26,810 nt of DNA from Pseudomonadota bacterium. Its GTDB lineage: Bacteria > Pseudomonadota > Alphaproteobacteria > Sphingomonadales > CAKZYD01. Position numbers and translations under genes: made by a program. The notes beneath the pieces were generated by a model that made no database searches, was not told the origin of the DNA, and saw nothing but the letters and a program-made list of their open reading frames with translations. Of the stretch, positions 1,493-26,195 are shown in pieces (within the stretch, counting starts at the first letter, position 1; each line of letters opens with the position of its first letter). The stretch covers positions 1 to 26,810 of the forward strand of contig JBCCDR010000001.1 in assembly GCA_039030675.1 (NCBI GenBank). Reading direction: 5' to 3'.

Positions 1493-1503
1493 GGCAGGTC
1501 CTT

Positions 1504-3768: not shown

Positions 3769-3775
3769 GCTGCTG

Positions 3776-5021: not shown

Positions 5022-5029
5022 CTGAGTGC

Positions 5030-7378: not shown

Positions 7379-7405
7379 TGAAAGAAGCGTGTCCTAGAAG
7401 AGCAA

Positions 7406-8029: not shown

Positions 8030-8060
8030 GATGTTTCCTAATGTCTAAGAGAGAGTCGGA

Positions 8061-8351
8061 TTAAAAGCGCAGCAGGCCGCGGTTGCCGCCGAGATAGGTG
8101 AGGACGCGGCCCGTCACAAACACAGCGCACAACACCACAAGCAGTTCAACGCGCAGCTCCACCGTGATACCTTGCGTATAATACACAATATAGCCGAGCA
8201 GGCCGAACACACTGAGCAGCTGCAGCGTCAGCCCAAAGAGCTTGAGGCTGTGGTTCTGCTTTTTCTTGCCGCCGGCCTTGTCGGGGTCGAGACCGCGTTT
8301 GCGCATCTCGACGCGTTCGCGCAGGCTGGGGCGCTCACTTTTGTTTGCCAT
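8061..8351 (-). CDS. Small two-TM membrane protein inserted between tail chaperone and tape measure (function unknown; holin or moron candidate)
   Basis: 96 aa: a very basic N-terminal ~37 aa, then two hydrophobic stretches (LFGLTLQLLSVFGLLGYIVYY; LLVVLCAVFVTGRVLTYLGG). It fills the gap between its neighbours in the operon orientation. Confidence 0.7.
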   Translation of the reverse strand: MANKSERPSLRERVEMRKRGLDPDKAGGKKKQNHSLKLFGLTLQLLSVFGLLGYIVYYTQGITVELRVELLVVLCAVFVTGRVLTYLGGNRGLLRF

Positions 8352-8382
8352 GTCTTTGTATGTGCGTGCCCGTTAGCGCAGT

Positions 8383-8574
8383 TCAAGAGTCAGGAAAGCG
8401 GCGCAATAGCGCAGCCAGGTCATCAGGGGTGCAAGCGCTGCTTTGCTGCGGGTCGCTAGAAGCGGCCACGAGCTCATTGGGCGTTGCAGCCCAGAAGTCG
8501 CTTGGGCGCCAGCCTAGCCGTTGCGCAGCAAAGGCTTGCAATTGCACAAAACCAATGAAGCGCTCAGCTGTCAC
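8383..8574 (-). CDS. Phage tail assembly chaperone (GTA g10.1-like)
   Basis: LGWRPSDFWAATPNEL and DLAALLRRFPD signature. GTG start overlapping the upstream gene. Confidence 0.8.
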   Translation of the reverse strand: MTAERFIGFVQLQAFAAQRLGWRPSDFWAATPNELVAASSDPQQSSACTPDDLAALLRRFPDS

Positions 8575-8902
8575 CCGACGTGCCTGTCATAATCGTTTTG
8601 AGCAGCTGCTGCATGGGCACAGCGGCCACGCTCACGCCGGCGTCCAGTATCTGCGCAGCGAAATCGTCTTTCGCCACATCATGGCCGCCTGCAACGGCGC
8701 AAGCGTGAAGCAACGAGACAATGTCGCCAATCAAAATCTGACCGCTGCCTGCCCGCTCCACGAGCGCGATAAGCGAGCCTGTGCTTTGCTCGGCCATGGC
8801 CAGCGCCTCAAAGCTGGGGCGCAGCTTATACTGCGTGCTGCCAAGGGTGAGCAGCACTTCCCCGCGATGCGGATTGGCAAACACGGCGCTAGGCGCTGAC
8901 AA
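8564..8902 (-). CDS. GTA-gp10 family tail assembly chaperone
   Basis: ANPHRGEV.L.LG....LRPSFEALA..E signature. Start uncertain (TTG 8902 or GTG 8884). Confidence 0.85.
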   Translation of the reverse strand: MSAPSAVFANPHRGEVLLTLGSTQYKLRPSFEALAMAEQSTGSLIALVERAGSGQILIGDIVSLLHACAVAGGHDVAKDDFAAQILDAGVSVAAVPMQQLLKTIMTGTSGDS

Positions 8903-9302
8903 AGCTGATGGCCCCTGCGCTTTCTAAAGACACAGCATAGGTCCGCGCATCATTATGGTCGCCGGTGAATTCCACGCTGGTGACATAGAATGAGCCTTCA
9001 AAGCGCGCGCCATCCTCAAACGTGACTTGGCAATCTGCCGCAGCGCCTGTGAGCAGCTTGGTTTGAACATTGGTCTCCGCAGCAGAGCCGGTGAAAATAC
9101 CGGTCCCGCGCAGGGACACGGATTTAACGCCGGCGCCAGGCAAAATCTCCCGCCAACCGCCAGAGCCTTTGTGGGTGATATCCACCGCTTCGCTGTTGAG
9201 CGTGAGCTGATTGGTGCGCAGCCCTGCAACGGTTTGGTAGGTAGCCGGGGAGCCGTCGTCGCTGACCTTTAAGAGAAAGGCGCGGCCTGATTGTGCAGTC
9301 AT
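8889..9302 (-). CDS. Major tail tube protein, TP901-1 family (GTA g9-like)
   Basis: MTAQSGRAFLLKV, VAGLRT..LTLNSEAVDIT.K.SGGWRE.L.GAGVKS and YAVSLESAGAISF. Start reassigned to ATG 9302 (RBS GGAGA 8 nt upstream), giving 137 aa. Confidence 0.92.
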   Translation of the reverse strand: MTAQSGRAFLLKVSDDGSPATYQTVAGLRTNQLTLNSEAVDITHKGSGGWREILPGAGVKSVSLRGTGIFTGSAAETNVQTKLLTGAAADCQVTFEDGARFEGSFYVTSVEFTGDHNDARTYAVSLESAGAISFVSA

Positions 9303-9324
9303 GTCAAAAGTCTCCAATGTGATG

Positions 9325-9744
9325 CTAAGCGGGAACAGCCAAGGCGGTGGGGTGCATGAGCGCGCGAAACCTCAGCACGCCGAGACGCGCGCGGCGGCGG
9401 CGCTCTATAAGGAAGCGCTCCTCCTCACAGAAAAACACCGCCAGATGATGGTCCGTCAAAGCAAGCTGGTCACTGCTGAGGTAGGTGCGGACAAGGCGGT
9501 GCAGGTCTTTGAGCGGGGCAAAACTCTCCGCATCCGACCAGGTGTTGAGCAGCAGGGTATGCTCTTCCCCGCGAAAGGTCTGGGTTGACCAATCGCGCAC
9601 CCGCTCATCTCCAAGCGTGATATAGGGATAACCACTCTTGGCAGGCGCAGTCTCGAAGACACCGCTTACGGCGCTTGTAATGTCGCTTTGGGCGAGCAGC
9701 TGCGCGCGCGCAGCCGCCCGCAAATCGCTGGCAGGATGAAGCAT
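9325..9744 (-). CDS. DUF3168 tail terminator/completion protein (GTA g8-like)
   Basis: YPYITLGDERVRDWST.TFRGEEHTL.L..WSD, plus syntenic position. Confidence 0.85.
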   Translation of the reverse strand: MLHPASDLRAAARAQLLAQSDITSAVSGVFETAPAKSGYPYITLGDERVRDWSTQTFRGEEHTLLLNTWSDAESFAPLKDLHRLVRTYLSSDQLALTDHHLAVFFCEEERFLIERRRRARLGVLRFRALMHPTALAVPA

Positions 9745-9756
9745 GGGATGTCCTTG

Positions 9757-10089
9757 TTAGAGCTCTGCTTTGCAGGTGAGCTGCAGATATTGGCAGCGCG
9801 TGTCTGCGGGCGTGATGGCGTCGATACGGTAGCGGGTATCGCGCCAAATCAGCCAATGGTCACGGCTGAGGTCATTGCGGTAGCGCACCGTCACCATCAG
9901 CGTGATGGTCGACACACGCTGGCCGGTCTCTTCAGAGGTGGACGCGCCTGACAGCTCAATGGCCGCCCACGTATCAATGCGTTGAACTGCGCCTTGACTA
10001 AGGCCGCCTTGCGCGTCCTGAGCGGCTGGAACATTCGCTTCAAAAGCAACCCGGTGATTGAGCGCGCCGATGTCGATGGGGCGGCTCAT
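9757..10089 (-). CDS. Head closure / head-tail adaptor protein (SPP1 gp16-like, GTA g7-like)
   Basis: IGALNHRV.FE, DAQGG, TWAAI, VTVRYR.D and WRDTRYRIDAI motifs, plus synteny. Confidence 0.85.
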   Translation of the reverse strand: MSRPIDIGALNHRVAFEANVPAAQDAQGGLSQGAVQRIDTWAAIELSGASTSEETGQRVSTITLMVTVRYRNDLSRDHWLIWRDTRYRIDAITPADTRCQYLQLTCKAEL

Positions 10090-10625
10090 ATGCGCACCTC
10101 CTTATAGGGTTGCCACAGCGCCGTCACCGCGCCTGGCAAAGGGTCAATGCCTGGCGATGAGCGTGTCTCATATTGATGGGCGATGAGCCGGAGCATGCCT
10201 AAGCGAAGCGCCTCGGGCACGCCGTTCCAATCTGCGCCTAGGCCGATACGGTATTCCACCGTCACACGGGCGCCCACCGTTACCGTTGGCAGCTCCACGA
10301 AAGAACGACCCAGATGCTCGCCCGTTTCCAGGCTGGTGGCATCAAGGCCAATCTCATCCGTGCCCGATTGCCAACTGGCTGACAGAAGCGTGACCAGCGG
10401 CCGGCCCTTCAGATAGAAATGCAGTCCCTGCTGCACCGCTTTGAGCTTTACATCGCGCTGGATAAGCGCTTGGCCAGTATAGGTTTCGCAAGCCTCACGT
10501 GCGCTGCCGATGAGGCTAGCAACCAGCGGGGCATCCTCGCTTTGTTCAAGCTTTAAATACGCTGCCGCTTCGGTCTGGCTGATGGGCTCAGAGGACGGCG
10601 GGGCTACGATGGAGAAATCACTCAT
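10086..10625 (-). CDS. Head-tail connector protein (gp6-like, GTA g6-like)
   Basis: PPSSEPIS..EAAAYLKLE, LI.SAREACE.YTGQALIQR and VPEALRLGMLRLIAHQYETR. ATGA overlap with the next gene. Confidence 0.88.
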   Translation of the reverse strand: MSDFSIVAPPSSEPISQTEAAAYLKLEQSEDAPLVASLIGSAREACETYTGQALIQRDVKLKAVQQGLHFYLKGRPLVTLLSASWQSGTDEIGLDATSLETGEHLGRSFVELPTVTVGARVTVEYRIGLGADWNGVPEALRLGMLRLIAHQYETRSSPGIDPLPGAVTALWQPYKEVRI

Positions 10626-10906
10626 CAGCGCTCTCCCACACGGATAACGATGTCGCGCTCATCAATATCGCCGCTTGCAAGCGTGATTTCATTGGCCAGG
10701 CGATAGACGTGGCCAGCAATACCGCCGCTCACGCGCAAGCGTGTAACGTTGCCGCTGATATCGCTGCCCTCTATCACCAGGCCGTCTTGCTCTTGCGGTT
10801 CCAAACGCCAGCGCGAGGCGACAACACTGTCCGTCACCAAATAATGCGCTGTCCAATCGATGGTGTAGGCCAGCGTAGCGGCTGGGTCTTTGAGATAGAC
10901 GGTCAT
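10625..10906 (-). CDS. Phage fibre-tail adaptor-like protein (gp77-like)
   Basis: YLKDPAATLAYTIDWT..YL, VSGG.AG.VYRL.NEITLASG.IDER.I.IRV pattern, typical of this small phage/GTA family. Translationally coupled to the connector. Confidence 0.72.
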   Translation of the reverse strand: MTVYLKDPAATLAYTIDWTAHYLVTDSVVASRWRLEPQEQDGLVIEGSDISGNVTRLRVSGGIAGHVYRLANEITLASGDIDERDIVIRVGER

Positions 10907-10909
10907 TGG

Positions 10910-11278
10910 CTAGGCCGTTGCAGCGAAGGTGATGGACCAGGCGAGAAAATGCACCACATCGCCGCTGACCACCGGCACGGCGGGGATGGGCGCGGCAAAC
11001 AATACTCGCTGATTGGTGTCATCCAGCAGCGCGATGGCGGCGGCGGTACCGCTCTTATCAATGGTCGTGACTTTTGCGCCCACGGAAAGTTTGCGCCCAG
11101 TCAGGGCCGCCTCCAGCGTGAAATCAGACGGGCCGACGCTTGAACTGGCAAGCCGCACGTCGCTTGCCGTATCGGAAAACTGTGTAGGCAAGGCGGAAAG
11201 CGCAACCATGGTTTGCGCATTGGCGGACAGCAGCGTGAGCGCACTGTCCATCACATCCGGATGAACGGTGGTAGACAT
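10910..11278 (-). CDS. Conserved phage hypothetical structural protein (122 aa)
   Basis: RBS AAGGGA. V.D.AL..L...A, DFT.....TGRKL.VGAK, SGTA..IALLDD.N.R.L and V....W.ITF resemble a small phage protein family I have seen near head and fibre genes. Function unknown. Confidence 0.68.
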   Translation of the reverse strand: MSTTVHPDVMDSALTLLSANAQTMVALSALPTQFSDTASDVRLASSSVGPSDFTLEAALTGRKLSVGAKVTTIDKSGTAAAIALLDDTNQRVLFAAPIPAVPVVSGDVVHFLAWSITFAATA

Positions 11279-11314
11279 GTTGAATCCCTTTGCGGTGAAA
11301 AAATCAGCGATGTG

Positions 11315-13939
11315 TTATTGCGCGACGGGCTTGGCCGGCGCTTTGCGCGCATGGGGCTCGACCTTGCGCGGCGGTGTGTTGGGGTGCGCAAGGAAGGGGC
11401 TGGCAGACACAGCCACATCAAAGCCTTGAAAACCAAAGGCGAAGAAGTCTTCCAGCGGCGGTGATGACACGTCGGCCGCAAACTGCGCCCCGGGGTCGTT
11501 GGGGAGCAGCCCAGCAAACTGGCCGGTGGTGTTTGAACGAGCGCTTTGCGCCTGCAGCTGCGCATCGCTCAGCAGCACATCATGCACAGCCAGATAATCA
11601 ATGTGCATCGGTGCCAGCGGGCTTTTGAACGTCACCTTTTCAACCGTTTGAACGGTGCCGGAGGTATCCGTTACAACAGTGTTGCCATTCCAAGAGGCTG
11701 CAAAATCATCATCGGCAAACCGGAGCGCGAGGACGACACGGCCATCGGCAAACTCGGCATTGGGCGTATCAGCCAGCAGCGATTGCACATCGCCATTGCT
11801 TGCGTCGCGGAATTGGGCCGTCAGCGTATTGATAACGCGCGCTTCGATGCGGCAGCTTTCATCGCCATTTTGCAGCTGCAGGATGACGCCGTTTTCCGGG
11901 ACCGGCATATCGAGCCCGACAACAAAGCTGCCTTGGGTGATGTGCGTCTCTCCCCAGGGCGAGACGGCATTGTTCAGACCGCCAGTGACAGTGCAGTGCT
12001 GATACTCGATATTGCCGCTGCTTTCGGTGCGGAAGGCCAGGTCCAACGCCGTAACCGTGCAGCCGGCAAGCCAGGCTTTGGCGGTGGAAGCGGCATGCAC
12101 CGCCGCCCAGGCTTGGACCGGATCAACACGGTTAGTGACGCTGCTGCCCAGCATGGTGAGCTGGGAGGTTTGCACGTTGTTGACAACCGAGCCGATGGGC
12201 GAACTGCCGGAATAGGTGCCGGCAATATCCAGCGCAATCACATCCTGATGCACCGTGTGCGCATTTACCGACGTAACGCCCTCCCCGCCATTTTCATGCC
12301 CGCTGCAGCGATAGGTGAGCATATGCGCGCCTTTGCCCGTCTGGGCATGCAGGCCAAAACCGTCTTTGTAGCTGGCGCTGGCGTCGCAATCGCGGAAGTA
12401 AACGATGCCCTCGCCCACACCGCCAATCTCCGTGCCATTCACGCTGGCGCCGGAATATCCCGCATAGCGGAACGTGCAGTTGTCGGCCGCGATGGAGCGG
12501 TCCGCATTGGCTGTGAGTTTGATGCAGCCCGTCGGCCCGCCTTCAAAATCCAGGCCTTCGAAATAAGCGTCTTGAGCCCAGCTGGCGCACTCCGCAATCT
12601 TTGCATAGCGGGACACAAACGTATTGTCCCAGGTCGGCTGCGCGCCATCGCTGCGGTGGATGTAGACTGTGCCGCCGGTCCCAATCCAAGTGCCCGGCGT
12701 TGCTTCGCAGGTGGCCAGGTCAGCGGCCTCTGACAGCTCGGTATAGAGGCCATCACTGGTCAGCTGTAGGCGGTCAAACACCCGCTCGCCATTGCCGTGC
12801 CCACCGCTATAGGTGTTGCCCGCATGCAGGCTGTATGTGCCCGGCGTGCTGGCGAAGATGCGTGCCCGGCCGTTTTGCGCTATGAAACCGGCGGGCTGGG
12901 TCGGCTGGGCAGCGATGTCTCCATTGATGCTTTCGCGCCGGGAATAATCGCCGGCTTCAATATAGACGCGGTAGGCTTGGCCAGTGGCATTGCCCAGCAC
13001 CACACAGGCGGCAATGTCGCGCTTGGCTGTGGCAGCAGTCAGGCCGTCTCCATCGTTATTGGCCATGGCGCTATTGGCGTAGAGGGCAGGCCCGGTGAAG
13101 ATGGCCGGGTCCACCACATCGCGGGGCGTGAGGGTAATCGTTGGGGCATCGACTTTGCCGGAGAGCCCCAACGGGTAGCGTGCTTCATCCCACGGAAAGG
13201 CTTGTGGCAGGGCGACATCATCGCTGATACCCCAGAGCGCATCGCCCAATGCATCGGCAGCACGGCTTGCGCCGAGAATGAAGCTGGAGGGCTGCGCCAA
13301 GCTGGTTATGTTAGCGCCCAGGACCACAACGCTCTGGCCCGCTTGCGTGCTATCCGGCCCGACCTCAAGAGCAAAACTGCTGGACTGATTGGGCGTGAAC
13401 AGCCCGCTTAACAGAAAAGCGCCGTCAGCCAAGGCGTCAACGGACAGCGCGGAGAAGGACCCGCCATCGAGCTGAGACGCTGTCGGCACACTGCCCACCT
13501 GCCCGCGCAAGACGGAAGAGGACGTCCCGCGAAAGGCGACACAAACGCGTCCGCTCGACCCGGCCGCGTAGAGAATGGAAAACGCATAGGCCTGGCTGGC
13601 TGTCAGCGAAATACCGCTTTGCTGGACGGCGCTGTCCGCACTGCCGCCGCTGGCAATTTGGGCCTGCGTGAAAGCGCCCCATAATGAAGGGCTTACCGTG
13701 CTGCGCGTAGCGCCAGACGTGAGCGTCCATGAGGCCGCGCTTGCGTCTGCTGGGTCAGCCACATACTGCGTGGCCGCTGGCTCCAAGAGGAGGCCTTTGC
13801 CAGGCTCAAAGCGCGGCTCATCTGCGCTGGCGACTTGGATCTGCCCAGCGGCAGTCACATAAGTCGCGGCGCTGGCGCGCGCAAAGCTTTGGCCAGGCGG
13901 CAGCGTTGCGGCGTAGCTGCGTTCAAAAAGAGCGGTCAT
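11315..13939 (-). CDS. Head-spike/fibre-like protein with an inserted right-handed beta-helix (pectin-lyase-like) region and a C-terminal ConA/LamG-like domain
   Basis: aa 1-232: FARASAATY..A.G....A..DEPRF...GLLLEPAATQ and SSFI....RAAD, the head-spike-fibre N-terminal pattern. aa ~285-660: NDGDG.TAATAKRDI..A, YIEAGDY, FEGLDFEGG, NCTFRYA and DGFGLH, beta-helix-like. aa ~662-799: GSFVV...FAASWNG...HIDYLAVHDVLLSDAQLQA. Domain boundaries are by eye. Confidence 0.75.
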   Translation of the reverse strand: MTALFERSYAATLPPGQSFARASAATYVTAAGQIQVASADEPRFEPGKGLLLEPAATQYVADPADASAASWTLTSGATRSTVSPSLWGAFTQAQIASGGSADSAVQQSGISLTASQAYAFSILYAAGSSGRVCVAFRGTSSSVLRGQVGSVPTASQLDGGSFSALSVDALADGAFLLSGLFTPNQSSSFALEVGPDSTQAGQSVVVLGANITSLAQPSSFILGASRAADALGDALWGISDDVALPQAFPWDEARYPLGLSGKVDAPTITLTPRDVVDPAIFTGPALYANSAMANNDGDGLTAATAKRDIAACVVLGNATGQAYRVYIEAGDYSRRESINGDIAAQPTQPAGFIAQNGRARIFASTPGTYSLHAGNTYSGGHGNGERVFDRLQLTSDGLYTELSEAADLATCEATPGTWIGTGGTVYIHRSDGAQPTWDNTFVSRYAKIAECASWAQDAYFEGLDFEGGPTGCIKLTANADRSIAADNCTFRYAGYSGASVNGTEIGGVGEGIVYFRDCDASASYKDGFGLHAQTGKGAHMLTYRCSGHENGGEGVTSVNAHTVHQDVIALDIAGTYSGSSPIGSVVNNVQTSQLTMLGSSVTNRVDPVQAWAAVHAASTAKAWLAGCTVTALDLAFRTESSGNIEYQHCTVTGGLNNAVSPWGETHITQGSFVVGLDMPVPENGVILQLQNGDESCRIEARVINTLTAQFRDASNGDVQSLLADTPNAEFADGRVVLALRFADDDFAASWNGNTVVTDTSGTVQTVEKVTFKSPLAPMHIDYLAVHDVLLSDAQLQAQSARSNTTGQFAGLLPNDPGAQFAADVSSPPLEDFFAFGFQGFDVAVSASPFLAHPNTPPRKVEPHARKAPAKPVAQ

Positions 13940-13965
13940 AAAACAGAACTGCGTTGCAGGATGCG

Positions 13966-14005
13966 AGAAAAGAAAAGGCGCGGAAGCATGGGCTCCCGCG
14001 CCTTT
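13966..14005 (-). terminator. Intrinsic terminator immediately after the major capsid gene
   Basis: Minus strand AAAGGCGCGGGAGC-CCAT-GCTTCCGCGCCTTT: a 14-bp stem with one G-U pair, followed by TCTTTTCT, 22 nt after the capsid stop. Confidence 0.85.
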
Positions 14006-14027
14006 AAAGAGAGCAAGGAGGTGTGCT

Positions 14028-15209
14028 CTAGGTGGCTGAGAACTTCAGCAGTTTCAGCGCGTTGGAATCGACCACAGCCCCACTGACACGCCGGGTGGCA
14101 TAGAAATGCACGAACGGCTTGTTGGAGTATGGGTCGCGCAAGATGCGGGTGGATTGGCGGTCGGCAATCAAATAGCCACGCTTGAAGTTACCAAACACAA
14201 CCGAGGTGCTGCCGCTGGAGATGGCTTCCATGTCTTCAGCCTCAATCACCGGATAGCCAAGCAGGGTGGCTGGCATTTGGTCTGCCAGACCCGGCCGCCA
14301 GAGATAGGCGCCGTCGCTGTCTTTAAACTTGCGGATTTGCGATAGCGTTTGCGTGTTCATCATGAACACTGCGTTTTGCCGATAGGCGGGGCGCAGGGCA
14401 TGCACCAGTTCCACCAGGACGTCAGCAGGGTCGGACGATGGGAACGCACCCGCGCTGCCGGTCACCACAGTTTGCAAGGTGCCGAACGGGCGCGTGTCAT
14501 CAGCTGCGTTGGATGTCGCATAATCCAGGAAGCCCTTGGGCTTAGAGGTGCCATTGCCAGAAACAAAAGCAGCGCCTTCTTGGACAGCAAACTCTTGCGC
14601 CAGCTCCTGCGTGAGCCAGGCTTCCACGTCAAAACGCGCATCATCCAGCATGGCTTGTGAGGCCGCTGGGTTGGCGTAAATCTCGCCATAAGGCAGTGCG
14701 ATTTCTTGGAACGTAGGCGTGTCGGTCGTCGACCGGGCCGCGGTTTCGCCGACCCAGCCAGAGGCCGGTTGGCCCAGCGTGATGAGTTTTTTGTAGTTAG
14801 CAGAGCCAACACGGACCACATTCGCCACAGAGCGCACAGGCGATAAATCCGCAAGCACGGTATCGACGCTTTGGTCAATCTCGTCCGGCACGGCTGAGCC
14901 GCCGTCGCTGTCGGTCGTGATGTTCAGCGATTTCAGGTCCAGGCCCTTGCGCATGAAGCCGTCCACAAAGTCAGTGTCTTGGCGCGTCGTTGCCGCGGTC
15001 TCAAGCTGCGGGCGCTGGGATTTGGCCGAGAGTTGGTCGACCCGGGTTTGCAGCGCGCTGACATGCGCATTCAGCCGGTCGACTTTTTCATGGGCCAGCG
15101 GGTCATCACCAGCGGCGGAATGTTCAGATTTAAAGGTTTCAAAAGCAGACTGCAGGTCATCGACAGCTGCTTTGATTTCAAGCGCACTTGGCGCGGAGGG
15201 GTGAACCAT
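14028..15209 (-). CDS. HK97-fold major capsid protein (GTA g5-like)
   Basis: DGGSAVPDEID, SPVRSVANVV, GWVGET..R..T.TP, EIYANPAASQAMLDD, FVSGNG..KPKGFL, WRPGL....PATLLGYPVIEAEDM and RDPYSNKPFVHFYATRRV.G. TAATG overlap with the protease stop. Confidence 0.97.
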   Translation of the reverse strand: MVHPSAPSALEIKAAVDDLQSAFETFKSEHSAAGDDPLAHEKVDRLNAHVSALQTRVDQLSAKSQRPQLETAATTRQDTDFVDGFMRKGLDLKSLNITTDSDGGSAVPDEIDQSVDTVLADLSPVRSVANVVRVGSANYKKLITLGQPASGWVGETAARSTTDTPTFQEIALPYGEIYANPAASQAMLDDARFDVEAWLTQELAQEFAVQEGAAFVSGNGTSKPKGFLDYATSNAADDTRPFGTLQTVVTGSAGAFPSSDPADVLVELVHALRPAYRQNAVFMMNTQTLSQIRKFKDSDGAYLWRPGLADQMPATLLGYPVIEAEDMEAISSGSTSVVFGNFKRGYLIADRQSTRILRDPYSNKPFVHFYATRRVSGAVVDSNALKLLKFSAT

Positions 15210-15880
15210 TACGGGGTCCTTTCAGTGAGGGTCAAAGTGTCCGTGCAGCTGCGCAGGGCGCTCATGAGACCAGACCAGTCCTCTGGGCCGTCCTCTTCAG
15301 CGTCCAGCGCCTTGAACCCCGCTGTGGCAAGCATCGCCGCTTGTTTGCGAGAGAAGCCGCCCACATCCCGCAGGAAGACTTCATATTCACGGATGGTGGT
15401 GGGCAACGTTTTAGCCTGCATCAAGCGGGCCAAAGGCTGCATAGGGAAGGTCACGAAGGACACTTCCCATAAATCAACTTGGGTCAGCCGCCGTGCTTTG
15501 ACCGCTGGGTCAGCGCGCGAGGAGACGACTTTATAGCCAATGGAGAGCGCATCCAGCGCGCCCGCCTGCACCAGCAAATGCAGCGCTTTGGCGCGCTCGA
15601 TCTCCAGCAGTAAGCGCCCTTCCACATAAAGGCCGCGGCGGTCCTCGCGCAGCTTAGTAAGCACGCCAATGGGCTCGCGTGGGTCATGCTGCCAGAGCAA
15701 CCGGACATCACCGGGCGGGCGATCGCGAAGCGTGTGTGCAAAAGCGCCAGGCTCGACAATGTCACCGCCAGTGTCCTTGATGGAGAAGACGCTGGCATAG
15801 CCAGAGAATTCACCATCGGCATTGATCTGCGTCTTGGTCCGCGGACCAGGCAGGTCGCGCGATTGGAGAGCAACCGCCAT
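15209..15880 (-). CDS. HK97-family prohead protease (GTA g4-like)
   Basis: FSGYASVFS.KDTGGDIVEPGAF, LLWQHDPREPIGV, LSIGYKV and DLWEVSFVTFPMQP.AR. RBS AGGAG. Confidence 0.95.
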   Translation of the reverse strand: MAVALQSRDLPGPRTKTQINADGEFSGYASVFSIKDTGGDIVEPGAFAHTLRDRPPGDVRLLWQHDPREPIGVLTKLREDRRGLYVEGRLLLEIERAKALHLLVQAGALDALSIGYKVVSSRADPAVKARRLTQVDLWEVSFVTFPMQPLARLMQAKTLPTTIREYEVFLRDVGGFSRKQAAMLATAGFKALDAEEDGPEDWSGLMSALRSCTDTLTLTERTP

Positions 15881-15906
15881 AAAGGGCTCCTATTTAAAGA
15901 ATGAGC

Positions 15907-16227
15907 TCAGCCGCGGGGGCCAAGCACGTCGGTGTAGAACGCGGCCCCAAGGGCCAGAATTGTTAAGAGCAGCGTCGTCATCCAGCGCACAGCGGTGCGC
16001 CGTGCGGTCTGGTTGACATCGCGCCAGCTAATCAGCAATTGGCGCAAATCTGAAATGTCTTTGGCCGCATGCAGGTCCGACAAACCCAGATGCTGCAAAG
16101 CGCGCTGGGCGCCCAGCTCGCAGGCTTCTTCCACCAAAGCGCGGACTGTGAGCGGGTCCGCCCCTTGGTCCATGGCTTGGGCAACCAAAGCAGCGAGCGT
16201 GTCAGTACGGTCCATATGATCAGGCAT
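15907..16227 (-). CDS. DUF6127 family protein (GTA cluster-associated, C-terminal TM helix)
   Basis: VEEACELGAQRAL..LGL.D..A.KDI.DLRQLL.SWRD pattern. Start moved to ATG 16227, because the track's extra MCGAFF is just the translated terminator hairpin; ATG 16215 is also possible. Confidence 0.75.
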   Translation of the reverse strand: MPDHMDRTDTLAALVAQAMDQGADPLTVRALVEEACELGAQRALQHLGLSDLHAAKDISDLRQLLISWRDVNQTARRTAVRWMTTLLLTILALGAAFYTDVLGPRG

Positions 16228-16254
16228 AAAAAAAGCCCCGCACAAGGCAGGGCT
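16228..16254 (-). terminator. Intrinsic terminator inside the GTA operon, between the 88-aa gene and DUF6127
   Basis: Minus strand AGCCCTGC-CTTGT-GCGGGGCT: an 8-bp stem with one G-U pair, then TTTTTT directly abutting the next ATG. Confidence 0.8.
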
Positions 16255-16284
16255 CTCAGTGTTGGGGTCTAGCGGAGAAAAAGG

Positions 16285-16551
16285 CTAGACAGCGTAAATA
16301 ATCGCCAGGTCTGTTACCGTTTCGCTTGGCTCGACCAGATTGTAGAGAAAGGAGTCGCCTTCATCTGGGTCGGACGGAATGGGCTCAGCTGGCAAAATGA
16401 TGTCATTGTCGGCAGGTACACCGCTTGCGATTGTATCATCGGTTTGCGGCACCAGGTCTAGCGCTGGCCCTTCGGCCTGCGCATAGCCAGCGAGCAAGCC
16501 GAAGCTGAAGAAAATTGCACATCCCGCTAAAAGAACTTTGCGAGCAGTCAT
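16285..16551 (-). CDS. Small acidic exported protein of unknown function (88 aa)
   Basis: RBS GAGG. Signal peptide MTARKVLLAGCAIFFSFGLLAGYAQA, then an Asp/Glu/Pro-rich mature part. Confidence 0.7.
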   Translation of the reverse strand: MTARKVLLAGCAIFFSFGLLAGYAQAEGPALDLVPQTDDTIASGVPADNDIILPAEPIPSDPDEGDSFLYNLVEPSETVTDLAIIYAV

Positions 16552-16660
16552 GCTTTACCTCTTTCACACATACTTGTTGCATGTGAGACGCAGCAAAGCG
16601 CATGCCAGCCCTGATTAATTCATATTTTTCAAATGCTTAGATGAATTCCACCAACTGTTT

Positions 16661-16668
16661 ATGGTTAA
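16661..16668 (-). promoter_or_regulatory. TTAACCAT motif (CtrA half-site-like) in the AT-rich spacer upstream of the 88-aa gene
   Basis: Exact TTAACCAT on the minus strand in a ~120-bp AT-rich intergenic region. A single 8-mer can arise by chance. Confidence 0.3.
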
Positions 16669-16673
16669 TGTCT

Positions 16674-17918
16674 TTAGAATGTGTTGGCTTTTTCGGCGCG
16701 CCCGTTTGAATTTGGAACAGCTGTTTGCGCAGGCGGAAGATTCAGCAAGGTGCGTTTTTCTGCGTCACTTAAAAAGTCTGCGCTGGCAATACGGCGCCAA
16801 TGGGCGTCGCGGTCTTCTGCGAGCGCTGGGATGGTCATATCATCCAGCTGCAACTCAAAGGTCGGCGCATAGGGCTGCAAGAGCCATTGGTTGAAGGCAT
16901 CAATGACCTGTTTGAGCAGTGGCAATACCGTCAGGCGCCACAAGGCTTTGTTGGCTTCTTGATAATTGGCATAGGTGTTATCGCCTGGAATGCCCAGCAG
17001 CATGGGCGGCACGCCAAGGGCAAGCGCGATGTCGCGGGCAGCGGCCTGCTTCGTAGACTGGAAATCCATGTCAGAGGGCGAGAAGCCCATAGGCTGCCAG
17101 CTCAGGCCGCCTTCTAAAATCATTGGCCGGCCGGCATTGGCCTGGCCTTGAAAATTCTCTTCAATCTGAGCGCGCAGCCGGTCGAACTGTTCATCCGTCA
17201 TGGTCGGCCAGCCGCTTTCAGATTTAAGGACCAGCGCCCCTGACGGGCGCGCGGCATTGTCCAAAAGCGCCTTTGACCAGCCATCCGCCGCCGCGTGCAG
17301 CCCCAAAGCGCGGGTGGCTGCTTGCAGGGCCGATTGCCCATAATAGTCATCCAGCGGATTGGGCGTTTTGAGATGCAAAATACGGCTTTTTCCCGTGACC
17401 GGGTCGACCGGAAAGTCCGTGGATTGACCGCCTACTTTGTACACATAGCGGTCTGGCCAGCCCGAGCGGCCCGGCTTTATTTCCATACGTTCTGGGCGAA
17501 GCGCGTAGAGTTCAAGTGGCCGCTCATCCTCTGGGGCCAGCACCTTCTCAATATAGGCGTTGCCGTGCAAGAGCAGATGGCTAATCACACTTTCGGTAAA
17601 AGCCGTCCGGCTGGTGAGCGGGTTTGGGCAGCGCAGGAGACGCAGCAAGGCATCCTCCTGCACCAAATCGCCTTCGTCATAGAGTTTCCAGCCAATGGAG
17701 GCGGCGCTTTGAGTCACAAGGCGCACGCAGCGCTGCACGACCGGGTTGCCGCTCAGCGCGTCCTTCGCGCTGGCTGTATAGGACCAGCTGGGCCACCTGT
17801 CCCCCAGCTCGCGCCAGACGGCATGGCCGGTAGCCGCGGCCGCACTGGCTTTGCGCTGCGAAGGCGCAGCGTGGCTTGCCGTATTAGGGCTGGATTTTGC
17901 CTTAGACCAAAATGGCAT
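16674..17918 (-). CDS. HK97-family portal protein (GTA g3-like)
   Basis: NPVVQRCVRLV, LL.CPNP, LLLHGNAYIE, ELYALRPERM, NPLDDYYGQS, NAARPSGALV, NAGRPMILEGGLSWQPMGFSP.DMDF and GVPPMLLGIPGDNTYANYQEAN. RBS AAGGA. Confidence 0.97.
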   Translation of the reverse strand: MPFWSKAKSSPNTASHAAPSQRKASAAAATGHAVWRELGDRWPSWSYTASAKDALSGNPVVQRCVRLVTQSAASIGWKLYDEGDLVQEDALLRLLRCPNPLTSRTAFTESVISHLLLHGNAYIEKVLAPEDERPLELYALRPERMEIKPGRSGWPDRYVYKVGGQSTDFPVDPVTGKSRILHLKTPNPLDDYYGQSALQAATRALGLHAAADGWSKALLDNAARPSGALVLKSESGWPTMTDEQFDRLRAQIEENFQGQANAGRPMILEGGLSWQPMGFSPSDMDFQSTKQAAARDIALALGVPPMLLGIPGDNTYANYQEANKALWRLTVLPLLKQVIDAFNQWLLQPYAPTFELQLDDMTIPALAEDRDAHWRRIASADFLSDAEKRTLLNLPPAQTAVPNSNGRAEKANTF

Positions 17919-17964
17919 GCGGGCATCCTTTGTATATCATCATCATTGTCTCAGCAGTGTGGGC

Positions 17965-18033
17965 GGAAAGGGCGCGCCCTGCGCGATGCGGAGGGAGCTG
18001 AGGGGAGGCCCGCACGCTCAGCGCGCCCTTTCC
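17965..18033. other. Long imperfect hairpin in the terL-portal intergenic region
   Basis: Perfect 13-bp inverted repeat GGAAAGGGCGCGC (17965-17977) / GCGCGCCCTTTCC (18021-18033), with further inner pairing (GCG-A-TGCGG / CCGCA-CGC) around an 18-nt loop. No U-tract on either side. Confidence 0.7.
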
Positions 18034-18080
18034 CTGGAGCGCAGATGCTACGAACGGTCTGCACCATGCGCTCCAGTATT

Positions 18081-19412
18081 TTATTGCTTTGGCGGCCAGC
18101 GATTGAGGCTGCGCACACCCGGCGTTTTGCGCGCGCCCAGCAGCAAGTCTGTGAGCGCCCAGACCAGCGCGTCCATGCGGTCCGGGCTCTTGTTGCTGCC
18201 TGGCACAAAGGCCGTCATTTCGTCTTCCAGGTCTGCAAAGCGGCCCACATGGTGGATGCGCCCTTGCTCATAAAGCGCGGCCACCGGCTCAGCGCGGACC
18301 CATTTGCCGCGGCTGGCATGGACGCCGCGATAAGGCAGGTGTGAGTCTTTGGCGCGCAGCATGGTCTCGACCAAATCGCCGCCTTGGTTGACCTCAGCGA
18401 CCAGACGGTCTGCGCCGAACCGGTCGACAGCATTCAGCGCCGCGCAGGCCCAGCGGTCAGGGCTTGCCGCCGATAGGCTGACATCGGCAAGCACATAGCC
18501 GTGCCCAGCGCTATCGCACCCAGCGACAATGATGCCGCAGGTGTCAGAGCGCGCATGACTGGTCACCGCGGGGTCCACGGCGACGACGATACGCGTGAGA
18601 CTTTGCGGCGCCTGGTCTAGGCGGGCCTCGTCAATCAGCGCATGTGTCCACAGCGCGCCTTCTCTGTCTTCCAGCAGCGTGCCTTCAAGTTCCTGCGCGC
18701 CGAGCCGCGTGCCAGCGTAGCGATTTTCCATTTCCGCCACAAAAGCGCCGGCCAGATTGCTTGTGTTCGCCCAGGTGCTGCCGCGGGTGACCACAGTGCC
18801 CTCCCGCGCCATGAGCGCTTTAAGGAACGGCAGGGGCCGCGGCGTGGTTGTCACCATGGCTTGCGGCGTATCGCCGAGGCGCAGGCCCATCCACATCATA
18901 TCCCAAAAGGCTTGGGCATGGGAGCATTTCGCCAGCTCATCCACCCAGGCCGCACTGTGCTGCGGTCCGCGCAGCGCTTCTGGCTGCTCAGCAGAAAAAA
19001 GATGTCCTGTCGCGCCATTGGGCCAGAGCAAAAGCTGCCGTGAAGGCTCAAAGCGCGGGCGCTCACTGGCCGGCGATATGGCAATCACGCCAGAGGGCCC
19101 TTCCACCATCACAGCGCGGGTCTGCGCATAGGTTGCGCCGGCAATGGCAATGCGCGCGTCATCCTCGCGGGCTTTCGCGCGCACCCATTCCGCGCCCATG
19201 CGGGTTTTGCCAAAGCCGCGGCCGGCGAGGACCAACCAGCACAGCCAAGGTCCTGGCGGGGGCAGCTGGTCCGGCCGCGCCCAAAACCGCCATTCATGCT
19301 CCAGCGCTTCTATATCGCACGGGTGCAGCGCGCTGAGAACTTCGGTGCGCGCATCGGGCGGTAAATCGGCAAGGCGCTCTGCAATGGACCGCGTATCAAT
19401 GGCCTGCGTCAA
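18081..19412 (-). CDS. Terminase large subunit (GTA g2-like)
   Basis: Walker A LAGRGFGKT, LRGPQH..AWVDELAK (Walker B), VTTTPRP, LGAQELEG, IVVAVDPA, AEVNQGGD and SPDRMDALVWAL. Confidence 0.97.
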   Translation of the reverse strand: MTQAIDTRSIAERLADLPPDARTEVLSALHPCDIEALEHEWRFWARPDQLPPPGPWLCWLVLAGRGFGKTRMGAEWVRAKAREDDARIAIAGATYAQTRAVMVEGPSGVIAISPASERPRFEPSRQLLLWPNGATGHLFSAEQPEALRGPQHSAAWVDELAKCSHAQAFWDMMWMGLRLGDTPQAMVTTTPRPLPFLKALMAREGTVVTRGSTWANTSNLAGAFVAEMENRYAGTRLGAQELEGTLLEDREGALWTHALIDEARLDQAPQSLTRIVVAVDPAVTSHARSDTCGIIVAGCDSAGHGYVLADVSLSAASPDRWACAALNAVDRFGADRLVAEVNQGGDLVETMLRAKDSHLPYRGVHASRGKWVRAEPVAALYEQGRIHHVGRFADLEDEMTAFVPGSNKSPDRMDALVWALTDLLLGARKTPGVRSLNRWPPKQ

Positions 19413-19879
19413 GATTGCGGCGTCTCGCCCTTCGCGCGGCGTTTTTCAATGCGCTCAAGGGCGTCCACAAGACGTTGATAGGCATCATCGCGCTTGGCTT
19501 GGTCTGCCTCGGGGCAGGCCACATCGGCCATGGCTGTCTTGAGGCTGCCATAGACCTCCGGGCGATGCGACTTGAGAAGAAACATAGCAAGACTGTCCGA
19601 ATAGCTGGTCACCACGCCGATGGGCTTGCCTTGATAGAACTGCGTGCTCTGCGTGCCTTCAATGGCGCGGCGAATGAGTTCAGCTTCAAGGGCGTCGAGT
19701 GCCAGTTGCATGGCCTGCGACCACTGCGCGGCAAAGTCAGCATCATCGCGCTTGGCCGCGTAGATGGCCGTGCGAGACACACCAACATGTTCGCAGCTGA
19801 GCGTGACATTCGCGCTTTCAGACAAAGCAGACAAGAAGTCAGCCTTGTGCTGCTTATTTAACCGGGTGGCGCTGGGCAT
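19409..19879 (-). CDS. Terminase small subunit (GTA g1-like, HTH)
   Basis: FL.AL.ESANVT.SCE.VGVSR..IY..KR.D.DFA.QW, LEAELIRRAIEG and YSDSLAMFLLK.HRPE.Y. ATGA overlap with terL. Start reassigned to ATG 19879 because the track's start (19945) lies inside the predicted promoter. Confidence 0.85.
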   Translation of the reverse strand: MPSATRLNKQHKADFLSALSESANVTLSCEHVGVSRTAIYAAKRDDADFAAQWSQAMQLALDALEAELIRRAIEGTQSTQFYQGKPIGVVTSYSDSLAMFLLKSHRPEVYGSLKTAMADVACPEADQAKRDDAYQRLVDALERIEKRRAKGETPQS

Positions 19880-19931
19880 TGTTTTTGGGGGTTCGCTTGT
19901 GCTGTGGGCCGATTTGTCGACCTTGAAATAA

Positions 19932-19960
19932 CTTATACGGTACACTGTGACGCTTGTAAA
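19932..19960 (-). promoter_or_regulatory. Near-consensus sigma70 promoter of the GTA operon
   Basis: TTTACA (19960-19955), 17-nt spacer, TATAAG (19937-19932), each 5/6 to consensus, in an AT-rich island. Predicted TSS about 19925. Confidence 0.7.
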
Positions 19961-20107
19961 GAAGTATTTTACCTATTTGGTACTTTTTTCGGTCTTTCGG
20001 ATTTATCTCGCATTTGAATGAAAGTGGATTTGTTAGGCGCCCAGCATTGCGGCATCTTCCTGCCATCGAGTGCAGCCAAAGGCGCTGCGTTTGGGAGGGA
20101 ACATATC

Positions 20108-20362
20108 ATGCGGACTATTCTTGCTGCGATCATTGGCTTAGCCGGACTCACCATCCCAACCAGTGTTGGCGCCAGTGACATGTCTCTCTTAGAAGCGCAG
20201 ACCTATACGGAGCAAACCGCCGCACGGCGCAGCGCGCACATGGCCTATAAACAGCGCCTCGCCATGGAAGAGGCCGCCGCAACCAACACAGCAAAAGCAA
20301 TGGTTGCCATCAGCGTAGCAGTCAGCGCCGCCTGTGAAGGCAGCTGTGTGCTCCTGCCGTAA
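20108..20362 (+). CDS. Small exported protein of unknown function (84 aa, C-terminal CxxxC)
   Basis: RBS GGAGG and ATG 20108 (shorter than the track ORF). Signal peptide MRTILAAIIGLAGLTIPTSVGA. Followed by its own terminator. Confidence 0.75.
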   Translation: MRTILAAIIGLAGLTIPTSVGASDMSLLEAQTYTEQTAARRSAHMAYKQRLAMEEAAATNTAKAMVAISVAVSAACEGSCVLLP

Positions 20363-20401
20363 AAAATTCTTCTCCAAACTTTAAGTTTCTTGCCCCACCT
20401 C

Positions 20402-20431
20402 AGGAGCGCCTTCGGGCGCTCCTCTTTTTTT
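20402..20431 (+). terminator. Intrinsic terminator of the 84-aa gene
   Basis: AGGAGCGCC-TTCG-GGCGCTCCT: a perfect 9-bp stem with a cUUCGg tetraloop, then CTTTTTTT. No U-tract in the minus direction. Confidence 0.9.
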
Positions 20432-20444
20432 GTGCTGTAGCCGG

Positions 20445-21209
20445 CTATAAGCGCCCAGCGCGCAAGCCATAAAAATCAACAAGCCGCTCAAGCCCAAAGC
20501 TTAAGATGAGTTTGGCCGAGCGACGCGGCCAGTCGAGGGCAGCTTCGGCATCGGCGATGCTCTGCTCAGCGCAGCACACCCGTATGAGCACGTCCGAAAG
20601 CCCAGCGCCGCAATGGTCCATGGCCGCCGCCACACGGTCCTTGGCGCGCAAAGCGCCGGGCGGCAAGTCTGGCTGCAGGGGCGCGCCGCGGCGGCCACGT
20701 TCGGGCGGGGTTTCTGACCATGACATGCACACCCGGGGCCCCAGTTGCGCCATCTCCCAATCCTGCCGAAGCCGCTCACCTGCTGCAAATTGCAAATCGC
20801 TGATGAGCGGCACACCCTTGCGGTCTTTGCGCGCGCGCAGCCACCACAGCGGCGATTCAGCCCGGTTGACCGTCACCGCCTGTTTGCGTCCTTCAATCTC
20901 GCGTGTTTCCTTCACGCGGTCTTGGTGCTGGGCTGCAAAGGCCGTGTTGGCATCAGGCCCTTGCTCAAAGCGAATGCGCTCGACCTTTTTAGTTCCGAGC
21001 GGGGTGAGTTTGACATAGCCTGCGTCCAGGACTGCCAGCTCCATCTGGGTAAACTTGTCAATCACAGAGCCGGGGACGGTCATGGCGCCGAGCTTGCCAT
21101 GGCCACTTTCTTCCAGACGCAGACGCTTGCCTTTGGCCAGGCGCATAAGCACGCGTTTTTCAAAGTCTGTGAGGGACCATTTGTGGCGGCGGTTGTGGGG
21201 GGTCAGCAT
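20445..21209 (-). CDS. DUF6456 domain protein, GafA/GafZ-like GTA transcription activator/antiterminator candidate, with a small N-terminal winged-helix-like region
   Basis: VTVNRAESPLWWLRARKD, QFAAGERLRQDWEMAQLGPRVCMSW, AKDRVAAAMDHCGAGLSDVLIRVCC, AE.ALDWPRRSAKLIL..GLERL..FY match DUF6456. Start at the second ATG (21209), 7 nt after GGAG. Orthology to GafZ is inferred. Confidence 0.82.
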   Translation of the reverse strand: MLTPHNRRHKWSLTDFEKRVLMRLAKGKRLRLEESGHGKLGAMTVPGSVIDKFTQMELAVLDAGYVKLTPLGTKKVERIRFEQGPDANTAFAAQHQDRVKETREIEGRKQAVTVNRAESPLWWLRARKDRKGVPLISDLQFAAGERLRQDWEMAQLGPRVCMSWSETPPERGRRGAPLQPDLPPGALRAKDRVAAAMDHCGAGLSDVLIRVCCAEQSIADAEAALDWPRRSAKLILSFGLERLVDFYGLRAGRL

Positions 21210-21245
21210 TTTCATTCTCCAGCTAGCACAATTAGAGATTCAATT

Positions 21246-21260
21246 TTATTGGACAATTAA
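21246..21260. promoter_or_regulatory. CtrA box-like site upstream of the DUF6456 gene
   Basis: TTAT-TGGACAA-TTAA, one mismatch to TTAA-N7-TTAA, about 37 nt upstream of the DUF6456 start. The region is AT-rich, so a chance match is possible. Confidence 0.35.
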
Positions 21261-21262
21261 TC

Positions 21263-21291
21263 TTGTAGGACAGCATTTTTTCACCTATATG
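21263..21291 (+). promoter_or_regulatory. Candidate sigma70 promoter of the XRE repressor gene
   Basis: TTGTAG (21263-21268), 17-nt spacer, TATATG (21286-21291), then RBS GAGGAG and ATG 21313. Confidence 0.45.
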
Positions 21292-21312
21292 GATTTTTAT
21301 TGAGGAGCTGAC

Positions 21313-21885
21313 ATGCAAAACCGGATTCGCGCTTTGCGGAAGGAGCGCGGCTGGACCCTGAGCGACCTGGCCGCCCGCATCACACCTGACCCGCCCACGG
21401 CGCAAACCATCGCCCGGCTTGAAACAGGGACCAGAACGCTGTCCTTGCCGTGGCTGGAAAAGATTGCAGCCGCCCTAGAGGTGGACCCGCAAGCACTGCT
21501 CACGCTGTCCGACGGCCCTAGCAGTCCTATTTTGGGCTCTGTCGGCCCAGCGGGCATCACCGCAGGCAAAACGCCGCCAGAAATTGACTTATCCGTGCTG
21601 GCGAAAGACCCGGTGGCGCTTGACTTCGAAACACCGCGCGGGCGCTTTCAGGCGGGGGATTTGGTGATTTTTGATAAAGCACAGCCCTATAGCGGCGGCA
21701 TCTTAGATGAGGGATTGGTCCTGAGCGAGGACGGACGCTTGCTGTTCGGCAGCATCTTCCCGGGCGCAGACGATGGGCAGCTGTTAATCGCAACGCCAGC
21801 GCCGCATGCCGGCCTGCATGACATTAGTGGCTGCCAATGGAGCGCAAGCGCCGTGTGCGTCATTCGCCGGCTTGGCCAAGACTAG
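21313..21885 (+). CDS. XRE/CI-like HTH transcriptional repressor with a degenerate S24-like C-terminal domain (RogA-like candidate)
   Basis: NRIRALRKERGWTLSDLAARI...TAQTIARLETGTRTLSLPWLEKIAAALEVDPQALL is a clear HTH_3. The C-terminal FQAGDLVIFD segment aligns by eye with the S24 'GD.V.VD' motif. Divergent from the DUF6456 gene. Confidence 0.88.
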   Translation: MQNRIRALRKERGWTLSDLAARITPDPPTAQTIARLETGTRTLSLPWLEKIAAALEVDPQALLTLSDGPSSPILGSVGPAGITAGKTPPEIDLSVLAKDPVALDFETPRGRFQAGDLVIFDKAQPYSGGILDEGLVLSEDGRLLFGSIFPGADDGQLLIATPAPHAGLHDISGCQWSASAVCVIRRLGQD

Positions 21886-26142: not shown

Positions 26143-26195
26143 AAACAAAGATTACACATGCCCCCGCATCTCACACCGCGCTCAATGCTAATTAG

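Follow-up and report, generated by a model that had tools for sequence, protein, structure and literature searches.

The 26,810-nucleotide stretch analyzed here, hereafter the window (positions 1 to 26,810 of contig JBCCDR010000001.1, assembly GCA_039030675.1), comes from a metagenome-assembled genome (MAG; 89% complete) of the order Sphingomonadales and, with a probability of roughly 70%, carries a chromosomally fixed, vertically inherited locus for a gene transfer agent (GTA) of the Rhodobacter capsulatus type (RcGTA) that keeps two dedicated regulators in cis. A gene for a putative XRE-family repressor of the RogA kind stands divergent from a gene of the DUF6456 family, the name under which homologs of the RcGTA regulator GafA are annotated (PMC9638019), and the DUF6456 gene is followed on its own strand by a predicted promoter, the small terminase gene terS and a complete run of head and tail genes (Table 1). 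The arrangement is a compact, well-conserved form of a known regulatory system and is not unique to this genome; what appears to be new in it is a conserved promoter module upstream of terS, together with a palindrome shared with the region between the two regulator genes. An earlier note, made from the sequence of the window alone, had proposed that repressor, antiterminator and late operon form one contiguous unit here, while the regulators of the model organisms are unlinked to the structural cluster. Both statements hold, the second for R. capsulatus, Hyphomicrobiales and Caulobacter crescentus (PMC9638019, PMC9632790, PMC11150451).

Table 1. Features of the RcGTA-type locus and its control region, with positions in the window.
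Feature	Position	Strand	Details
RcGTA-type head-tail cluster	995..19879	-	18.9 kb; Pfam and NCBIfam matches
Intrinsic terminator T2	14005-13974	-	14-bp stem, dG -25.1 kcal/mol, T-rich tail; directly after the capsid gene
Intrinsic terminator T1	16257-16231	-	dG -16.8 kcal/mol, U7 tract
Predicted leader	19880..19925	-	begins with conserved block CAAGGTCGA (19925-19917) at ~+1; start inferred from promoter geometry
Predicted head-tail cluster promoter	19932..19960	-	-35 TTTACA 19960-19955, 17-nt spacer, -10 TATAAG 19937-19932
terS-proximal palindromic box	19971..19981	-	ACCAAATAGGT; 10 nt upstream of -35; same palindrome as the regulator-intergenic box
Small open reading frame, 84 aa	20108..20362	+	signal-peptide-like N-terminus; convergent with the DUF6456 gene
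Intrinsic terminator of the 84-aa open reading frame	20402..20423	+	9-bp stem, 7 GC pairs, then T7 run
DUF6456 gene, 256 aa	20445..21215	-	PF20057, E 7e-44, residues 115-250
Divergent control region XRE/DUF6456	21216..21312	.	holds box ACCTATATGGA 21283-21293 and motif CTGTCCTACA (-, 21273-21264)
XRE gene, 190 aa	21313..21885	+	Pfam HTH_3/HTH_31, E 4e-9

Organization and Chromosomal Setting of the Locus

The head-tail operon of about 19 kb described in the earlier note is fully borne out by the family matches, which place the RcGTA hallmark families, that is, homologs of g1-g15, in conserved order. Starting from terS, which has a weak Sf6-terminase match and an ATG at 19879, the cluster runs through terL, the portal gene, an 88-amino acid (aa) open reading frame (ORF), a DUF6127 gene, the prohead protease and the capsid. 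These are followed by an 874-aa head-spike fibre protein, a 122-aa ORF, a Gp77-like adaptor and a 179-aa ORF, and then by the head completion, tail completion and tube proteins, the GTA-gp10 chaperone, a 96-aa ORF and a 207-aa tape-measure-like protein. The last part comprises a 782-aa fusion of NCTSP ('non-contractile tail sheath') and DUF2460 domains, the hub (Gp84_N and BR0599), NlpC/P60, an Rcc01698-like protein and DUF2793. Several of these families are GTA-specific, namely GTA-gp10, the GTA spike fibre, the Rcc01698-like family and DUF2793. Relatives from several families share the gene order, and terL shows 50-57% identity across the order, which together indicate vertical descent.

The flanks point in the same direction. 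On the left the cluster adjoins a host outer-membrane beta-barrel gene, and on the right the regulators are followed by host genes for an acyl-CoA dehydrogenase, a MAPEG protein, a ureidoglycolate lyase and PabB. The acyl-CoA dehydrogenase gene adjoining the XRE gene is kept in 4 genomes of different families, at 70-89% protein identity, and the locus is therefore read as old, resident and vertically inherited. Conservation of flanking genes within orders has been described by Shakya et al. (PMC5721377). No integrase, replication genes or tRNA were found in the 26.8-kb window, which is the scope of all statements made here on integrase, replication, lysis, tRNA and host genes.

The earlier note had also placed intrinsic terminators within the operon. 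In total, terminator-like sites occur at chance level (20 vs 20.9), and the part of this claim that stands concerns two strong intergenic examples. T1 separates the 88-aa ORF from the DUF6127 gene, so that all capsid and tail genes lie downstream of it, and the position of T2 is recurrent, with a hairpin directly 3' of the capsid stop codon in 6 of the 8 clusters examined.

Some further properties of the cluster deserve mention in their own right. The 874-aa protein (11315-13939, -), encoded right after the capsid gene and its terminator, has an N-terminal 'GTA spike fibre' domain (NF048003, E 1e-14), and only its C-terminal ~160 residues match a same-genus relative. The 782-aa fusion (5030-7378, -), which joins the tail sheath domains PF23844 and PF23845 to a DUF2460 domain of the g12 type, is kept at full length with ~50% identity in the families coded f1, f3, f5, f8 and f10 below. 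An apparent 404-nt gap before the protease gene is mostly occupied by the DUF6127 ORF (15907-16245, -; E 4e-26), with T1 immediately before it. The 162-nt gap between terL and the portal gene (17919-18080, -) contains long GC-rich inverted repeats that lack a U tract, and no terminator was called there.

Distribution and Ancestry of the Linked Layout

A survey of DUF6456-terS synteny, proposed in the earlier note for the Alphaproteobacteria, covered a sample of 151 genomes of the order, grouped into ten families coded f1-f10. The same succession, with XRE divergent from DUF6456 and the latter followed by terS and terL, was found in the loci of 18 relatives, where 100-800 bp separate DUF6456 from terS. 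The DUF6456 gene lies at most 3 kb from terL in every decidable genome of f1, f2, f3, f5, f7 and f10, as well as in one f4 genome, and in f6 it is followed by terS at a contig end. Altogether, the layout holds in every decidable genome with DUF6456 in 8 of the 10 families. In f8, the Sphingomonadaceae-type family, three genomes are linked, four have the two parts 3.7-14 kb apart, and the rest have them distant or on other contigs. The linked layout is thus the usual state in the order and has mostly been broken up in f8. Families f4 (loci L106, L139-L145) and f9 (loci L107, L108, L134-L138) mostly have clusters and lack DUF6456, which is present in 2 of 38 and 0 of 33 genomes, respectively; that they keep RcGTA-type clusters mostly without DUF6456 and its XRE partner suggests that the regulator may have been replaced there.

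Named records coinciding with coded genomes assign Iodidimonas muriae to f5 and Sphingomonas-like genomes to f8, and they add a 'Sphingomonadales bacterium' MAG to the window's own family; the same layout is found in I. muriae and in Sphingosinicellaceae bacterium M-36, among other named genomes. Beyond the order, three further families showed tight linkage, and all six IMG/VR matches are linked. The divergent XRE-DUF6456 pair also occurs at loci unlinked to the cluster, in Sphingomonas, Sphingomicrobium, Sphingobium, Parvibaculum, Rhodomicrobium and some Hyphomicrobiaceae. The earlier note would have counted it as a refutation if the linkage were already the common and described state of this clade: common it is, but a literature search, itself incomplete, returned no paper describing regulator-cluster adjacency or the promoter elements reported below.

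A tree of the DUF6456 domain from 109 loci places the window's family beside the Sphingomonadaceae clade. Every family that branches off early in the order has the linked layout; the unlinked state falls within Sphingomonadaceae, and six state changes suffice to explain the distribution. The suggestion in the earlier note that the locus is a snapshot of the ancestral state is thereby supported within the order; for all Alphaproteobacteria, the root state is ambiguous because the Hyphomicrobiales and Parvibaculum clades are unlinked. Since the layout is usual across the order, it suggests that the regulators may have been domesticated together with the particle genes. The ancestral prophage has been held to have lost most of its regulatory genes (PMC11409702). 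A more far-reaching reconstruction is offered only tentatively, at odds somewhat short of even: the RcGTA ancestor may have carried a RogA-like repressor divergent from a GafZ-like antiterminator, directly upstream of terS, with one shared palindromic operator serving both this switch and the late promoter, a double-locked arrangement that the window and most families of the order would preserve at one chromosomal site, while the regulators of Rhodobacter, Caulobacter, Hyphomicrobiales and most Sphingomonadaceae would represent later break-ups.

The Two Regulators

The assignment of the two genes to RogA-like and GafZ/GafA-like kinds, made in the earlier note, agrees with Pfam membership, predicted folds, profile alignment and the lack of a Ser/Lys dyad. 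In an AlphaFold 2 (AF2) model with a pLDDT of 88, the XRE protein combines a helix-turn-helix (HTH) with a LexA/CI-like beta domain, and its full-length Foldseek matches are lambda CI, 186 CI and LexA (E 5e-6 to 1e-3). The C-terminal likeness to LexA/CI is visible by fold only: a profile of the XRE family matched PDB sequences through the HTH alone, and Pfam gave no match for isolated residues 71-190. Across 24 homologs, the C-terminal half has no column with Ser above 25% or Lys above 33%; the self-cleavage dyad is therefore absent and RecA-dependent self-cleavage is not expected. The HTH, on the other hand, is almost invariant across families. This architecture is that of RogA, which consists of an N-terminal HTH and a C-terminal LexA/CI-like domain lacking the catalytic residues (PMC9632790), and the XRE protein is a putative repressor of the RogA kind.

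The DUF6456 gene is the only one found in its genome by a search that recovered the same family in a Caulobacter control genome. Its start is better placed at the ATG at 21209 (254 aa), which is better spaced from the Shine-Dalgarno sequence GGAG than the first ATG at 21215. The AF2 model (pLDDT 79) has a winged-helix-like domain at residues 17-85 and a C-terminal HTH at residues 186-249. With hhalign, a profile of 20 relatives aligned over its full length to residues 106-372 of a 382-aa GafA-type ORF from another family, with a probability of 99.9. The protein thus corresponds to GafA without its GafY-like N-terminus: the central and C-terminal parts are present, and the first ~100 residues, before the start of the alignment at residue 106, are lacking. 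No GafY-like DnaA-type HTH is fused to the protein or encoded just upstream, where the DUF6456 gene is directly divergent from the XRE gene across 97 bp. Residues 1-110 in isolation gave no Pfam match. The N-terminal domain is poorly conserved across families, and the Sphingomonadaceae protein, which starts only at about residue 110, lacks the winged-helix domain. A complex prediction of residues 1-130 with the organism's own RpoZ scored 0.00 with poor folds and provides no evidence either way on omega binding.

Among 50,697 phage records, DUF6456 was not detected except in one mis-binned bacterial contig, MW462191.1. This candidate for a phage carrying the domain was rejected as a bacterial contig with a Hyphomicrobiales gafYZ-sufE neighborhood: the 103-kb record, labelled 'Bacteriophage sp.' (region examined, 67124-85765), encodes a cytochrome and an ABC transporter along with a gene annotated Tet(X4), and in it a gafY/gafZ-like pair stands beside a sufE-like gene.

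A Conserved Promoter Module and a Shared Palindrome

As stated in the earlier note, the DUF6456 gene lies about 0.5 kb upstream of a co-oriented sigma-70-type promoter, the -35 element following its stop codon by 485 nt. The accompanying description of that promoter as near-consensus is accurate as to position and conservation and less so as to strength, given that the -10 element lacks the usual final T and that a consensus promoter scan did not list the site. The promoter is nevertheless taken as real because relatives of many families have the -35 hexamer at this place and, 17 nt away, the TA of the -10. Comparison across these loci defines a module composed of a palindromic box (A)ACC-N5-GG(TT), a gap of 10-12 nt, TTGACA, a GCGTCAC-type motif, a -10 in which only TA is conserved, and CAAGGTCGA or CATGCTC at about +1. 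In the window's genus the -35 reads TTTACA instead of the TTGACA found elsewhere, and GCGTCAC occupies positions 19953-19947 (-), at the start of the 17-nt spacer. The module, scored as CC-N5-GG 10-12 nt before the -35, is present in 19 of 25 linked loci, and also in 5 unlinked f8 genomes and 1 genome of another order. The same palindrome, followed by a TCCTACA motif (CTGTCCTACA), recurs in the regulator intergenic region of almost every family, Sphingomonadaceae among them.

Within the window's own genome, the combination of box and -35 occurs at chance frequency (~6 per million bases), and all features come together only at the terS copy. Further promoters with the composite motif were sought genome-wide and discarded as chance-like, the best of them lying before the gene downstream of tilS on contig C290 and being unrelated to the GTA; single palindromic boxes elsewhere look like coding sequence. 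Beyond the two sites, no further member of a regulon came to light in this incomplete genome. Family f9 carries neither of the regulators; its loci keep the -35, the -10 and the +1 block and combine them with a different palindrome, CCTAT-N2-ATAGG, and with a GGGGTTAAT spacer motif in place of the GCGTCAC-type motif, which is so in 7 of 7 f9 loci and in 0 of 27 loci with DUF6456. In f4, a TTGACA-type promoter was looked for up to 420 nt from terS and not found.

Other candidate elements in the divergent control region fared less well. A CtrA-type TTAA-N7-TTAA site at 21246-21260 was rejected: it has one mismatch, is at chance level in the window (93 of 100 shuffles) and does not recur in relatives. 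The published RogA repeats GGAA-N4-TTCC (PMC9632790) are not present as such in this region.

The predicted leader may form a hairpin within its first ~20 nt (19906-19921, -; GGUCGA/UCGGCC), which is weak (z -1.2 in the window) and occurs in some relatives and not in all. Where it is found, at the same place in loci L004-L006, L009 and L078, the arms can differ and still pair, as in CUGGAUC/GGUCCAG of L006 and CACGC/GCGUG of L078.

Proposed Control and Alternative Explanations

The following sequence of events is proposed for the locus. A dimer of the XRE repressor would bind ACC-N5-GGT in the divergent region, overlapping the promoter regions of the DUF6456 gene and of its own gene, and so keep the activator off; the palindrome copy at the terS promoter, which lies 10 nt before the -35, may let the repressor act directly on the structural operon as well. 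Once repression is relieved by a signal other than RecA-type self-cleavage, DUF6456 protein would be made, bind GCGTCAC between the -35 and the weak -10 through its sigma-4-like HTH, aid the start of transcription by RNA polymerase and stay bound. The polymerase would then read through T1 and T2 into the capsid and tail genes. In this scheme the XRE protein is the most likely candidate binder of the palindrome, and it is favored because its HTH is nearly invariant across families, as is the box.

The succession of a repressor, a late activator, a late promoter and head and tail genes with internal terminators is also the layout of a lambdoid late region, and IMG/VR lists related stretches as viral contigs. 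On these grounds the locus might, instead of a GTA, be a prophage, defective or still inducible, governed by a CI-like repressor and a late activator and packaging its own DNA. Such a reading is rendered very unlikely by the window, which lacks integrase, replication and lysis genes and tRNA and has host genes on both sides of the locus, by the chromosomal neighbor shared across families, by the vertical descent evident from gene order and terL, by the GTA-specific families listed above and by the lack of DUF6456 in the 50,697 phage records, one mis-binned bacterial contig apart. An even slighter chance is accorded to the idea that the regulators are mere conserved neighbors of the cluster and control something else. 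The acyl-CoA dehydrogenase gene, conserved beside the XRE gene, would be an example of such a target; the same palindrome, however, lies in both control regions, the full composite promoter motif occurs in the genome only at terS, lineages without the regulators have different promoter elements, and where the pair is unlinked it stays together while the terS promoter keeps the module. Homologs of both proteins are, moreover, proven GTA regulators (PMC9632790, PMC11150451, PMC9638019).

A third alternative concerns the wiring of the circuit and is regarded as unlikely, if appreciably less so than the two just discussed. Control might be a single lock as in Caulobacter, in which the repressor acts on the DUF6456 gene only and the terS-proximal box is an activator site for the winged-helix domain of the DUF6456 protein or for a GafY-like protein. 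The position of the box, centered near -51, is typical of activators, Caulobacter GafY binds upstream of both the GTA promoter and gafYZ (PMC11150451), and the DUF6456 protein does have a second, winged-helix-like domain. Nevertheless, the box is still found between the regulator genes in Sphingomonadaceae, where the DUF6456 protein has no such domain; the XRE HTH shares the near-invariance of the box, whereas the N-terminal domain of the DUF6456 protein does not; and no GafY-like gene was found in the 89%-complete genome.

The preferred reading, that of a vertically inherited RcGTA-type locus with two dedicated regulators in cis, also has to contend with several points that weigh against it or against the control proposed for it. 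The kinship of both regulators to the studied proteins is drawn from Pfam membership, architecture and the descriptions in the papers, and the best Foldseek match of the C-terminal HTH of the DUF6456 protein, to sigma-L region 4, is weak (E 0.13; TM-score 0.75 by target). The binder of the palindrome is proposed from conservation, and the placement of the terS box suits an activator as well as a repressor; the consulted passages of PMC9632790 name no RogA site at the promoter of the Caulobacter GTA cluster. Caulobacter requires GafY, and a search of the 89%-complete genome with a GafA-type N-terminus as query found no GafY-like partner (E 0.26). Neither lysis genes nor a lysis cassette were found in the window, and with both a lysis cassette and a GafY-like partner missing from what was searched, the 'self-contained' system envisaged in the earlier note is not supported. 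Finally, the covariation of the cis elements with the regulators in f9 is a consistent hint from a single lineage, to which no statistic is attached.

Relation to Known Systems

The closest counterpart of the locus is the C. crescentus GTA (CcGTA), controlled by RogA, GafY/GafZ and IHF (PMC9632790, PMC11150451). There, RogA binds short inverted repeats in the core promoter of gafYZ and thereby represses these genes (PMC9632790), and GafZ recognizes a DNA element located between the -35 and the -10 and enables polymerase to read past terminators (PMC11150451). Both systems pair a LexA/CI-like repressor lacking catalytic residues with a DUF6456 regulator, and in both, the sigma-70-type promoter of the cluster has a conserved element in its spacer and terminators within the cluster call for read-through. 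They differ in that rogA, gafYZ and the cluster occupy three separate loci in Caulobacter and are contiguous here; in that no GafY-like gene was found here and a copy of the palindrome lies also at the cluster promoter; and in the sites themselves, which are GGAA-N4-TTCC for RogA (PMC9632790) and a GC-rich palindrome for the GafZ-binding element (ZBE) in Caulobacter, in contrast to ACC-N5-GGT and GCGTCAC in the window. The Caulobacter terminator consists of 150-bp repeats after the first gene, unlike the two hairpin and U-tract terminators described above.

In R. capsulatus, the C-terminal domain of GafA binds the region of the -35, the -10 and the transcription start site of the RcGTA promoter (PMC9638019). 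The window protein aligns in full to the central and C-terminal (DUF6456) parts of the 382-aa GafA-type protein and, unlike GafA, lacks the first ~100 residues with their DnaA-like HTH. In that organism gafA is unlinked to the cluster, and its divergent neighbor, rcc01866, has no predicted function (PMC9638019). The gafYZ-like locus of Hyphomicrobiales, with its mucR/HTH and sufE neighbors (PMC9638019), likewise has a DUF6456 gene with a regulator gene upstream, and several Hyphomicrobiaceae and Parvibaculum loci resemble the window in that an XRE homolog lies upstream of DUF6456 on the opposite strand. In contrast to the window, the Hyphomicrobiales locus lies unlinked from the head-tail cluster, and its DUF6456 gene is preceded by a separate small gene of the DnaA-like kind.

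The earlier note had likened the locus to a minimal lambdoid cI/Q arrangement. On paper, the resemblance to the CI/Q/PR'/Q-binding element (QBE) system is clear, extending to a CI-fold repressor, a single late promoter whose -35 and -10 flank the DNA element of a regulator, and terminators in the late operon. A CI-type SOS switch and homology to Q were nonetheless both contradicted: the repressor lacks the Ser/Lys dyad, and the DUF6456 protein has no Pfam match to the Q families. Early, replication, integration and lysis modules are likewise missing here. With DUF6456 missing from all true phage records searched, the resemblance to lambda CI/Q is one of functional logic and not of descent from known Q families.

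Additional Features of the Window

The 84-aa ORF between the DUF6456 gene and the terS promoter, which the earlier note had passed over, has no Pfam or NCBIfam match. It is probably a later insertion, since it is shared with one same-genus relative only (50% identity).

On the far right of the window, a c-di-GMP-I riboswitch aptamer at 26050-26138 (+) was recognized by Rfam (RF01051, 60.6 bits, E 9e-10) upstream of an ORF starting near 26158.

Implications for GTA Regulation and Evolution

To date, GTA regulators have been studied only where they are distant from the structural genes. A contiguous, vertically inherited unit provides direct genomic support for the view that proteins of the RogA type and the GafZ/GafA type descend from the prophage's own control module, and it complements the co-evolution of gafA with the cluster inferred by Kogay et al. 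(PMC9765227). The promoter module, for its part, supplies concrete candidate binding sites for these regulators. The compact layout also exists in cultured organisms such as I. muriae and Sphingosinicellaceae bacterium M-36, which would allow the entire circuit to be transferred or dissected as a piece of ~21 kb.

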